This document shows positions 21,720 through 34,947 of a stretch of DNA of 34,947 nucleotides, in pieces. The translations under genes were made by a program, and so were the position numbers. Position 1 is the first letter of the stretch. Every line of letters begins with the position of its first letter. The stretch is taken from positions 1 through 34,947 of the forward strand of contig JABANN010000365.1 of assembly GCA_013115125.1 (NCBI GenBank), read 5' to 3'. Source of the stretch: Perkinsus olseni. Its lineage: Eukaryota. The notes under the pieces were generated by a model, which worked only from the letters and a program-made list of their open reading frames with translations, searched no databases and was not told the origin of the DNA.

Positions 21720-23669
21720 CCTACAACATCTCTAGCATATACATCAGCTCCATGCCTCAGAAGAATCTCAATAACATCAATTGCCGCAACCTCTGCCGCG
21801 GCGTGCAAGGGCGTCCGTCCATCAATAGGATTCACCTGATAATGTCGCGCGCCACGAAATTCACCAGCGGCCAATTTTCACGACAATTTCACCTCGTTGA
21901 TCGACGCGCTGTATGACAACAGCAAAGCAACGGTGTCGCTCTGGTTCGTTAATGATGCTACGAAGAGAGGCGTCCAGCCCTTATCACCACCATCATCAGG
22001 ATGGGCACCGTATCTGACGAAAATAAAGATACTATCGACATCACACTATAGTCAGACGCAGGTTAACCTATGAATACAGTAATAAAATATCTTAGCGATT
22101 CCACCCCAGTGCGCAGTATAAAGATTTTGCAAATCTTCGACACGCTAACGAGAGAAACTTGGAAAAACAAGAGCAAGACTTTTTCCACAGTTTTCAACAA
22201 TGGAGTTTCACCCGTGATATGTCAGGTGAAATGTCTCCAATGTCGAGAAAACTGAAGAGCTGTTGCGGGTGGGGATGTAGCATAAAATTCACACGAAAAA
22301 ATATACCGAAACAACTCCCAGGAACAAAGACCGAAATTAACGTCAAAGAACTAATTCTTAAAAGTTTACCAACTTCACGCGCCACGAAATTATTCACTCA
22401 CCTGAGTAGCGTTGCTGCCACTCCCGCGCCGCCTGGCTCTCTGCAGGCGACGAACAACGGGGTCGATCCGTTCCGAGAAATGGCGTCCACGTTGGCGCCT
22501 CGAGTCAGCAGCAGATCGCAGATTGCTGGTTTTCCAACCAGATAGCATGCCTCATGCAGAGGAGTATAACCCGACTGAAGCAAGGGTCAACCTAAGATAC
22601 TTCTCAACGGCTACAGATTGAGTTCGACCCATCGATATTCTCAGTACTGCGAAAATTGCCAAACACGCAACGCTTCGCTCCGCCATTTTCATCATCATAC
22701 TCACCGATCCTTTCGCATTCACATTGCATCCCCTTTCCAGCAGTACCATCACCGTCGACACACTCCCCGACCGAGCCGCCCGCTGCAACAGTGTTCCTAA
22801 AGTTGCCAAAATTTTCCGAATTTTTTCCGTAAAAAATCCGTTTTTCCGGCAAAATTACCTCCATCATGATCCCGACAGCTCCTCACGTCGATGTCACTGG
22901 TTACGATCATCAACCACAAGAGATCCGGCTCCCCACACGCTGCTATGTGGAATGGATCAAGGGACAGGACGTCCAGCTGAAACGGTGGTACAGGGTCCCA
23001 TAGCGTTGAGGAATTGCAAGATTGCAAGATTCACTACAGACTCCCAACCTAAACTTGTGACAAGAGCGACTTCCATACTCCGACTTCGGCATGATTCCAC
23101 ATTCCCGCCGTCGTTTAACCAGGTTAGAAAATATTTCCGAGAATCGCGCGCCCTAAAACATTTTAATTTCCTCAAAATCTCCGCATTTCTACCGACGGGA
23201 TGACTTGAATAGGTAAAAGTGCGTAAATTCGAGTGCGCAGAAAAAAATCCGGAAAAATAATAGGAAAATCGCGTGCTTCTACTGACCTCCATCGCCACTT
23301 TGGAGAGAATCTTTCCAACTCTTTCCGAGTCCAACCTCCAATGAAAGATCTTACTTAACCGTCTAAGTTTGATTAGCACTGATGGCAAGAATGCACAGAG
23401 GGTTTCTAGAACCTGAACAGCAACAGGATGACGACCGTCACTGCGCCTCGAAATTCCCAAAACCTCCGTGAAACGACGTATAACAGGGATCGCCGAAAGA
23501 CTATGCTTCGCGAAGCGACACGTGCCCTATCATCAGACCGAAAGCAGCCCACCTTATCATTGTTGGCAACTTGGCTCAGCCGTAGCGGCTCTCCTGCGAC
23601 CTTGGATTCGGGAGAGGGTGATGCTGTGGCCGTCGTCGTAGAGGCTGAGTTGCCGGTATCAGATGACAT
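21720..23669 (-). CDS. Ankyrin-repeat protein, multi-exon; 3' end unresolved
   Basis: Ankyrin repeats TLLQRAARSGSVSTVMVLLERGCNVNAK, GYTPLHEAC...LLLTRGANVDA, NGSTPLFVAC, GWTPLFVAS, GRTPLHAAAEVAAIDVIEILLRHGADVYARD. Confidence 0.87.
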
Positions 23670-24182
23670 ATCGAGACGCGCCACTACAACCAACCAAAAC
23701 CGTTTGAGAAAAAATCCGCATATCCAACGGCTTCGTCGCAGAAAAAAATTTTTACTACGAGAGGAACATTTCTCAAGACAGAACCAGGCTAACCCTGCTG
23801 AATTCACGATTTCCCCCGAAAATTTCACGGTTCCGGAATCTGACCGCTCTACGCAAGATACTTCTCTGGAGCAGCGTCCACAACAGAGCTGATGAGCTCG
23901 AAGATCTCCCGCCCGGGAGCAGCTTCATTCGCAATCTATTCGCGTTTTCGGTCGAGCCGAAGCGACACCCGCAATTGTAATACTGAACCAAACTACCGTC
24001 ACGCGCCACAAAAATGGCTAATTTCTTACAGGAAACATTATAAAGGAATGCTATATGAAACGTTGCTCAATTGACAGTGCTGAAAGATACCCTTCTAGGA
24101 GGCCAACCATAGGCAGCCCCCATCTAATTTCGTGGCGCAGTGACAAAATCTTATAATCATACAGTAATCAAGAATCTATAAT

Positions 24183-33905: not shown

Positions 33906-34947
33906 AGACGAGAAATGGAGGTCGTGAGTTACTCCTCCTGAAAATAGGAAAGGAAAACTGTGCAAATGATCATAAATTCAATTTCGGCATACCACTTTTC
34001 CCCCAACTTCCAATGAAATTCACCACCACTCCCACTGTCCATGTGCCCTAGATTTTTTTCTGCCATTTCCGAAATTACTTGTCGAAATCCCACCCGATAA
34101 AAAATGCAGAAAACGTCACACAAAGACGATAAAACGAAAAAGTCCAGAAGCTGTTTTCCAATTCGACGCCCTGAGTGAACGAAAATCATCTGTCTCTTCC
34201 CTCTTGCCCTCTTCGATGCCGAGCAAATGTTGAGTTAAACCCGTAGGGTTCGACGAGGGTGAAACTAGTACAGGGGCTTAGCCCGGGCCCCCCGCACGGC
34301 GCGGATCTCAGCTGCGTTCCGACACAACGGTTTCGAGCTTAACGGAACTAACGGAGTAGCTTTCTCGAAGTATTTTGGAAGCCGGGTAGATTGGCCCATA
34401 CGGATTTGTTTTTATCTTCTATTTTCCTGAATTTCCATCATCTTTACAAGATCTCAATTTTTTCGCCGTACCACTCCTTCCCATAATCACACTCAGTAAC
34501 GCTCTAATATTGTCTAACCCTCGTCGATGGACCTCCCCTCAGTATTACTTTTCCCATTGTAGCCATCGGCACTGACTGATCGTCCTTCGGGAGTGGATGG
34601 AAGCATACAAAAGGTTAAGCTGGTACTGAGAAATGCACGCGGGTTCGATGCCGGGGTCCTCCTATTTAAAACTTCGGTAAAATCACCCTCGCAGTTTACG
34701 AGGTCGAAAGATACGCTCGGTGAATTCAACAAGTTCTATCGGGAAAGTGCCAAGAATTTTCCGGATCTTGACATAATAATTTCGTGGCGCAGTGACGGAC
34801 GACTGCACCTATTAGCCGAGAGGATACGTTCCGTTAGCGGAGGGAGTCAATGCTAAGGCGAGGCGTCATTGTTCGGTTGTCCATGAAAATGGTGAATCCT
34901 GAAAATGGTGAATCGGAAAAAATTACCCGCGAACCCTGATAATGGTG

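Follow-up and report, generated by a model that had tools for sequence, protein, structure and literature searches.

Bent DNA built from phased A-tracts is known from kinetoplast minicircles and from bacterial A-tract clusters, A before T being the order of bending tracts. Eukaryotes in general also carry an AA/TT rotational signal for nucleosomes, with a period of 10 to 10.5 bp and with G/C dinucleotides in counter-phase across ~147 bp. The periodic An/Tn clusters (PATCs) of Caenorhabditis introns are reportedly called with the algorithm of Fire et al. at a score of 60 or more. They reportedly favor the long introns of genes that lie in repressive chromatin, and shield such genes from silencing. 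These worm clusters are described as hundreds of bases long (270/281 in an example) and as making up 5 to 11% of genomes (PMC4947018; 10.64898/2026.08.08.743475), and the preprint among these sources reports that they arise from mutated minisatellites (10.64898/2026.08.08.743475). On nucleosomes, A-tracts are reported to face inward (PMC3819648), and Perkinsus is reported to package its DNA in canonical nucleosomes (PMC6723414). The name Perkinsus does not occur in the cross-species PATC table of 2016, searched across 13 supplementary files (PMC4947018), nor in the main text of the 2026 preprint, a survey of animals whose supplements may list more species (10.64898/2026.08.08.743475), and a literature search found no report of such phasing in this genus. 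What we describe here is a variant of the known A-tract phasing, in a lineage for which no report was found; the phasing is real, intronic, short, and patchy.

The DNA analyzed here (the window) comprises all 34,947 bp of contig G000:C2641, part of the 39.9-Mb assembly of Perkinsus olseni. A P. olseni protein (P0092) matches one of its exons at 100%; for the gene at 6.1 kb, the match is 95% to P. olseni and 84% to P. chesapeaki. The ankyrin-repeat gene and the cyclic-nucleotide phosphodiesterase-like (PDE) gene were mapped by alignment to P0092, P0093, and P0004, the last being the P. chesapeaki homolog of the PDE-like gene (PF00233), together with splice-site scoring, which gave 11 ankyrin and 22 PDE introns. 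The least certain of these is 33343-33759, and the PDE frame is open after omission of the uncertain first exon. In P. chesapeaki, too, the two genes are neighbors, on an 88,260-bp contig. Intron evidence also came from four public runs kept as contigs, whose RNA status is presumed rather than established. Among the RNA joints listed, 13 of 15 were minus-strand GT-AG joints, with 37 further joints beyond these, and mapped exon lengths agree with the spaces of 461 and 75 nt that separate RNA pieces. The 62-nt ankyrin intron, which is absent among the RNA joints listed, is placed by its GT-AG ends and by alignment to P0092/P0093. The coordinates are collected in Table 1.

Table 1. Genes, phased runs, and sequence words in the window, with the basis for the introns that hold them
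Feature	Position	Strand	Remarks
3-tract run	3519-3540		AT-rich noncoding DNA, predicted intron
4-tract run	4848-4882		Predicted intron of the 2.9-6.1 kb gene
Ankyrin-repeat gene	19737-23669	-	12 exons, 537-aa open spliced frame, GC3 0.58
17/18-bp word (AATTTCGTGGCGCGYGA type)	21844-33210		e.g., 21844, 22374, 26776, 27105, 27482, 30935, 33193
5 phased A-tracts	22808-22856		Fill the 62-nt ankyrin-gene intron 22797-22858
3-tract run	23165-23188		Intron 22977-23286
3-tract run	23241-23269		17 nt from 5' splice site, intron 22977-23286
PDE-like gene	24183-33342	-	22 mapped exons, 856-aa open spliced frame, GC3 0.57
5-tract run	25687-25733		11 nt from 5' splice site, intron 25637-25744; RNA joint in 4/4 runs
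3-tract run	26218-26244		Intron 25992-26288; RNA joint
3-tract run	26907-26932		Near 5' splice site, intron 26753-26950; RNA joint in 3/4 runs
3-tract run	30749-30774		Intron 30424-30800; RNA joint
A/T-tract-rich intron without strict phased run	31596-31893	-	Part of the previously named 31320-31880
4-tract run	32944-32982		Intron 32466-33010; exon lengths agree with RNA contig pieces
4-tract run	33941-33978		Upstream of mapped PDE exons; intron or 5' flank

We took as a tract any stretch of AnTm that is four or more bases long and free of TA steps, and as a run any series of three or more tracts whose centers lie 9 to 12.5 bp apart. Between 22.8 and 34.2 kb there were nine runs versus 3.1 expected (0 of 200 shuffles reached nine), eight of them in mapped introns and none in exons; a looser tract cluster lies at 32843-32886, within the intron 32466-33010. 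The excess was significant for the ankyrin gene (0/200 shuffles) but not for the PDE gene alone (5 versus 2.8; 28/200). Over the same interval, the AA/TT autocorrelation, controlled with 50 dinucleotide and 50 run-preserving shuffles, peaked at lags 9 to 13 (z 3.9 to 6.6), 20 to 22 (z 3.9 to 4.9), and 31 to 33 (z 2.2 to 3.5). The peak-trough contrast was 0.11 across the 33 mapped introns, a value reached by 0 of 200 shuffles, versus -0.055 in the exons of the two genes (155 of 200). An earlier note on this DNA had predicted an intronic AA/TT peak near 10 bp above composition-matched shuffles, and this is borne out. The run starts it quoted at 25681-25740 and 22801-22860 are exact, with center spacings of 10, 10, 10, and 11 bp in the former and 11, 11.5, 9, and 10.5 bp in the latter. 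Seven of the 10 places that it named hold a run of at least three tracts at 9 to 12.5 bp, and the other three do not: 3880-3960 has a single pair, while 15030-15170 and 31320-31880 have many tracts at irregular spacing. The note also had the tracts largely absent from three places, PABP, the gene at 6.1-7.9 kb, and PEX7/PRP18; this is true but uninformative, given that shuffles expect just 0 to 0.17 runs there.

The genome sample comprised 68 stretches (668,876 bp), from which the window itself, four stretches of low GC, and a tRNA array had been excluded. It was not fully random, four stretches having been chosen beside strong ones and three contigs read nearly whole. Introns in the sample came from a self-trained gene finder, which recovered 12 of the 13 RNA-joined introns but was seeded from those same introns; further training rounds recovered 9, 8, and 6 of the 13, and training on compact genes alone 0 to 6. 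With spacing of 9 to 12, introns of >60 nt held 41 runs versus 13.8 ± 4.1 expected, shorter introns 2 versus 1.1, and exons none, and the confident introns alone gave 21 versus 8.8. Most off-phase spacing windows were close to the shuffles, with 12.5 to 15.5 raised (16 versus 9.7). Between genes we counted 5 runs versus 4.6 expected, which is weak evidence that phasing is missing there because the split between introns and intergenic DNA made by the gene finder is unreliable. An annotation-free count over 67 stretches gave 55 runs versus 25.5 expected. Pairs of AAAATT, which need no gene model, numbered 127, 46, 105, and 38 genome-wide at spacings of 11, 16, 21, and 26 (p 6e-10 for 11 versus 16), at least 15 of the 105 at spacing 21 coming from one 7-bp satellite, so that about 85 to 90 are left without it. 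The reversed pattern occurred 3, 0, 6, and 2 times, that word being ~2.8 times rarer, and a strict three-tract pattern, which was too tight, had four matches. A 7-bp AAAATTC satellite array lies at 72.6-72.8 kb of another contig (G000:C3287). A 6.2-kb contig with 17% G+C, possibly organellar (L021, G000:C3340), was excluded from all counts. No orthologous DNA of other Perkinsus was found in metagenome contigs.

Pooling 760 long introns, tract spacing peaked at 11 (O/E 1.9) and 21 to 22 (1.4), with a cosine period of 10.3 bp (bootstrap 10.0 to 10.5). AA-to-AA and TT-to-TT peaks were in phase, and AA-to-TT peaks came ~2 bp later (12 to 13, 23 to 24, and 34 to 35). AATT was more common than TTAA in long introns (623 versus 234), which is weak evidence alone because TpA depletion is general. 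Pairs of tracts of the same type were enriched at 10 to 12, but A-then-T (27 versus 23) and T-then-A pairs (24 versus 22) were not. The 79 runs were mostly of three tracts (52), followed by four (14), five (9), six (3), and ten tracts (1), and mostly 25 to 55 bp long, the longest reaching 98 bp. By our rule, which is stricter than the published PATC score, they cover 2,632 of 141,088 long-intron bases (1.9%). Their density was 0.05/kb in introns of ≤60 nt and 0.35 to 0.82/kb in longer ones. Spacers had 69% G+C, the commonest being CCGG, CGG, and CCCG.

Together, the period, the polarity, and the lack of preference for A/T pairing point to the geometry of double-stranded DNA, with narrow minor grooves on one helical face. 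The reading that we favor, at a probability of about 0.5, is that the tracts constitute a DNA-bending signal or a rotational signal for nucleosomes. In introns above the usual 50 nt, short AnTm tracts keep to one face of the helix for two to five turns, with G/C-rich spacers in between, and the narrow minor grooves of these tracts would bend the DNA or fix its rotational position on a nucleosome. The tracts are concentrated in DNA free of coding constraint and reach their highest density in patches of 10 to 20 kb whose genes have longer, AT-richer introns. They might originate from mutation that depends on helical phase, or from weak selection, where nucleosomes are positioned. A bending or nucleosome signal had already been suggested in the earlier note, and the helical phasing, the intronic location, and the fitting A-before-T polarity agree with it. 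Against it, the AA/TT signal fades by ~33 bp, and phasing after two to three turns, less than the length of a nucleosome; CC, GG, and CG profiles are noisy, with no clear counter-phase; the period varies from 10.0 to 12.2 among subsets; and, among confident introns, those of 61 to 150 nt had a contrast with z 3.5, while those of >150 nt had none (z 0.9).

The period of ~10.3, the A-before-T polarity, and a host that uses nucleosomes are shared with the general nucleosome rotational signal. Unlike it, Perkinsus has discrete, visible tract clusters, found in some introns of a genome with ~50% GC and absent from exons. If the signal were rotational nucleosome bias only, it would be a modest addition to what is known. 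Kinetoplast and bacterial bent DNA likewise places four to ten A4-6 tracts in register with the helix and separates them by G/C-rich spacers, but the Perkinsus tracts are intronic, scattered, and imperfect. The 62-nt intron composed wholly of phased tracts offers a small, clean test piece.

Among the alternatives, a functional analog of PATCs would combine the runs with the 17-bp word and with isolated pieces of tRNA B-boxes into a selected barrier or anti-silencing mark by which genes stay active in repressive patches, and we regard it as unlikely. The strong clumping of runs agrees with it (chi-square 245, df 66), since 7 of 67 stretches hold 35 of the 55 runs and 41 have none, as does a density that tracks long introns (rho 0.6), low GC (rho -0.81), and motif-bearing introns (rho 0.42, 68 stretches). 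So does a contig picked for the 17-mer only (C715), with 27 runs versus 9.3 ± 2.9 in its 59 long introns, although, over the whole sequence, 28 of 29 runs fell in two of three stretches. The 17-mer itself occurs in 495 exact copies genome-wide with unrelated flanks, clustered by contig, and its reversed pattern in none. However, the fold over shuffles was alike in motif-rich (2.8; 13 versus 4.7) and motif-poor stretches (2.4; 31 versus 13.0), and therefore the patches hold longer, tract-richer introns rather than better phasing; the phase preference is general to long introns. Moreover, motif and runs showed no association within single introns (Fisher p 1.0), the on-phase minus off-phase excess did not correlate with the motif (rho 0.04), and four stretches (L092, L043, L071, and L040) are motif-rich yet almost devoid of runs. 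The co-occurrence with the 18-bp motif claimed earlier applies to loci (the rho of 0.42 and contig C715) but not to individual introns.

In the window, the core of the word (≤2 mismatches) had 15 matches versus 0.28 expected, all at 15.7-34.8 kb, and the runs at 3.5 and 4.85 kb had no match nearby. The 17-mer looks like a protein-binding site. A further tract follows two turns downstream in about half of 48 copies, and copies are often part of a longer near-palindrome that takes in a second A/T tract two turns of the helix away, as at 27476-27499. Its orientation in introns was sense in 13 cases and antisense in 8. One perfect copy (33193-33210) lies in frame in a PDE exon, reading NFVARD where P. 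chesapeaki has NYAARD, and this single case suggests that point change, rather than insertion, can create or preserve the word. Many introns of 45 to 60 nt (for example, in L050, 1-10000) carry one module each. This may be the 17-mer, an AAGATAC word, a GCAAGATT-repeat word, or a tRNA T-arm/B-box piece that is followed 22 to 24 nt downstream by a T run; in the window, modules of this kind occur in the introns 21023-21192, 30919-31145, 32032-32098, and 25472-25519. Two nearly whole compact contigs (112 and 159 kb) had low run density throughout. The genes of the patches (named by eye from translations) look ordinary, including what we take to be poly(A) polymerase, Rag-type GTPase, kinesin, and DnaJ. 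In the window, the two run-hosting genes have a GC3 of 0.57 to 0.58, versus 0.75 for both PABP and the gene at 6.1 kb. In the sample as a whole this association was weak, with 0.61 beside run-bearing introns versus 0.62 (p 0.07).

The domain containing transposon relics that the earlier note had imagined found no backing, which also speaks against a PATC analog. No transposon Pfam family matched any of 102 reading frames from six nongenic or unresolved stretches, and in DNA searches both long PDE introns and a 1.7-kb tract-bearing stretch were single-copy. A stretch with reverse transcriptase and transposase frames (L036) had no excess of phasing (7.6 on-phase versus 6.5 off-phase pairs per 10 kb). 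The region at 16.6-18.2 kb shares only pieces of 45 to 75 bp with 13 other places, and the top matches between introns, among the 40 of 139 pairs listed, were paralogs and short motifs. This is a lack of support rather than a disproof, because common words are passed over in DNA searches and relics of great age may go unmatched in Pfam. Flanks of tRNA genes were rejected as a source of the tracts, single ARAGORN tRNA genes being without phased upstream tracts by eye. Phased tRNA-associated tracts occur only in the spacer of one tandem array, nine tRNA-Thr(TGT)-like units mostly ~170 bp apart with phased A-tract spacers (L051, 6618-8320; G000:C2680). The sharp phasing island on that contig is this array, and it was removed from pooled counts. 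The array occupies part of a predicted intron, and the exons of the gene in question look to us like repeated globin domains.

A neutral origin from decayed short repeats is also doubtful. The tracts would then be by-products of slippage or fold-back copying of an 11- to 12-bp near-palindromic unit of the CGGAAAATTTTCCG type, and the match to the helix would be accidental. It would account for the recurrent spacers, adjacent ones being slightly more alike than random pairs (0.515 versus 0.483, p 0.02), for several two-copy repeats of 9 to 11 bp that overlap tracts, and for the 62-nt intron, which folds better than its shuffles (z -3.0); the reported minisatellite origin of worm PATCs would be a parallel (10.64898/2026.08.08.743475). 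On the other hand, identical adjacent spacers were found in 0 of 126 pairs, and tract type switches within runs. There was no long tandem array at the runs, and no array of more than two to three copies. Slippage also leaves unexplained a one-turn peak with troughs at 15 to 17.

Perkinsus, the nucleosome-using sister group of the dinoflagellates, might have independently evolved an intron-borne chromatin code, with one module per intron (a bent A-tract cluster, the 17-mer, or a lone B-box) and many such introns in patches of 10 to 20 kb that jointly keep genes active, a conjecture that we hold to be improbable. If true, the PATCs of worms would have a compact counterpart outside animals that owes nothing to Helitrons.

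A role in RNA, in which hairpins of A/U runs or U-rich binding proteins would aid splicing of introns longer than the 50-nt norm, is very improbable. Run starts do lean toward the 5' splice site, 17 of 64 lying at most 40 nt from it versus 9.4 under a uniform distribution, the sense strand is T-rich (TTTT 1146 versus AAAA 502), and one of three folded introns, that of 62 nt, stands out from its shuffles. Yet the other two fold like theirs (z -0.4 and -1.7), the tract pairs that are enriched are not the complementary A/T ones, and single-stranded RNA has no 10.5-nt repeat. Chance in AT-rich introns with clumped tracts is already largely refuted and barely worth entertaining, for although the off-phase AAAATT pairs also exceed the unclustered expectation of ~4 and the PDE gene alone is not significant, local run-preserving shuffles that keep the clumping yield a third of the runs, and off-phase windows resemble shuffles.

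Compared with Caenorhabditis PATCs, the Perkinsus tracts are alike in forming A/T clusters one helical turn apart that are intronic, denser in long introns, and uneven over the genome. Unlike PATCs, to which the earlier note had likened them, they fall short in scale, with the run lengths and the stricter-rule coverage given above, and have no detected Helitron minisatellite source, although a very old one is possible. We do not class them as PATCs because two features that define PATCs, extent and Helitron origin, were not found, despite a geometry like that of short PATCs. An approximation of the PATC chain score was discarded as too permissive, as it drifted through neutral DNA with a broad peak at steps 7 to 12. 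Discrete phased tracts in a GC-balanced alveolate indicate that introns can acquire helical A-tract clusters that do not stem from Helitrons.

Some other features of the window deserve mention. Two PDE introns are unusually long and single-copy, 24333-25394 (1.06 kb) and 28305-30345 (2.04 kb); both are spanned by unspliced contigs, and the former has a 162-codon open frame with no Pfam match. In the PDE-like protein (26516-26752), CGD occupies the place of the metal-binding motif of class I phosphodiesterases, a motif that usually contains HD. The P. chesapeaki PDE model is without exons 26668-27439. A tRNA-Pro(CGG) gene (13287-13358, minus strand) lies within a predicted PRP18 intron. Between genes, 8390-8870 has short similar pieces common to two sample stretches (L028 and L007) and includes a 23-bp inverted repeat at 8810-8858, possibly a small repeat element.
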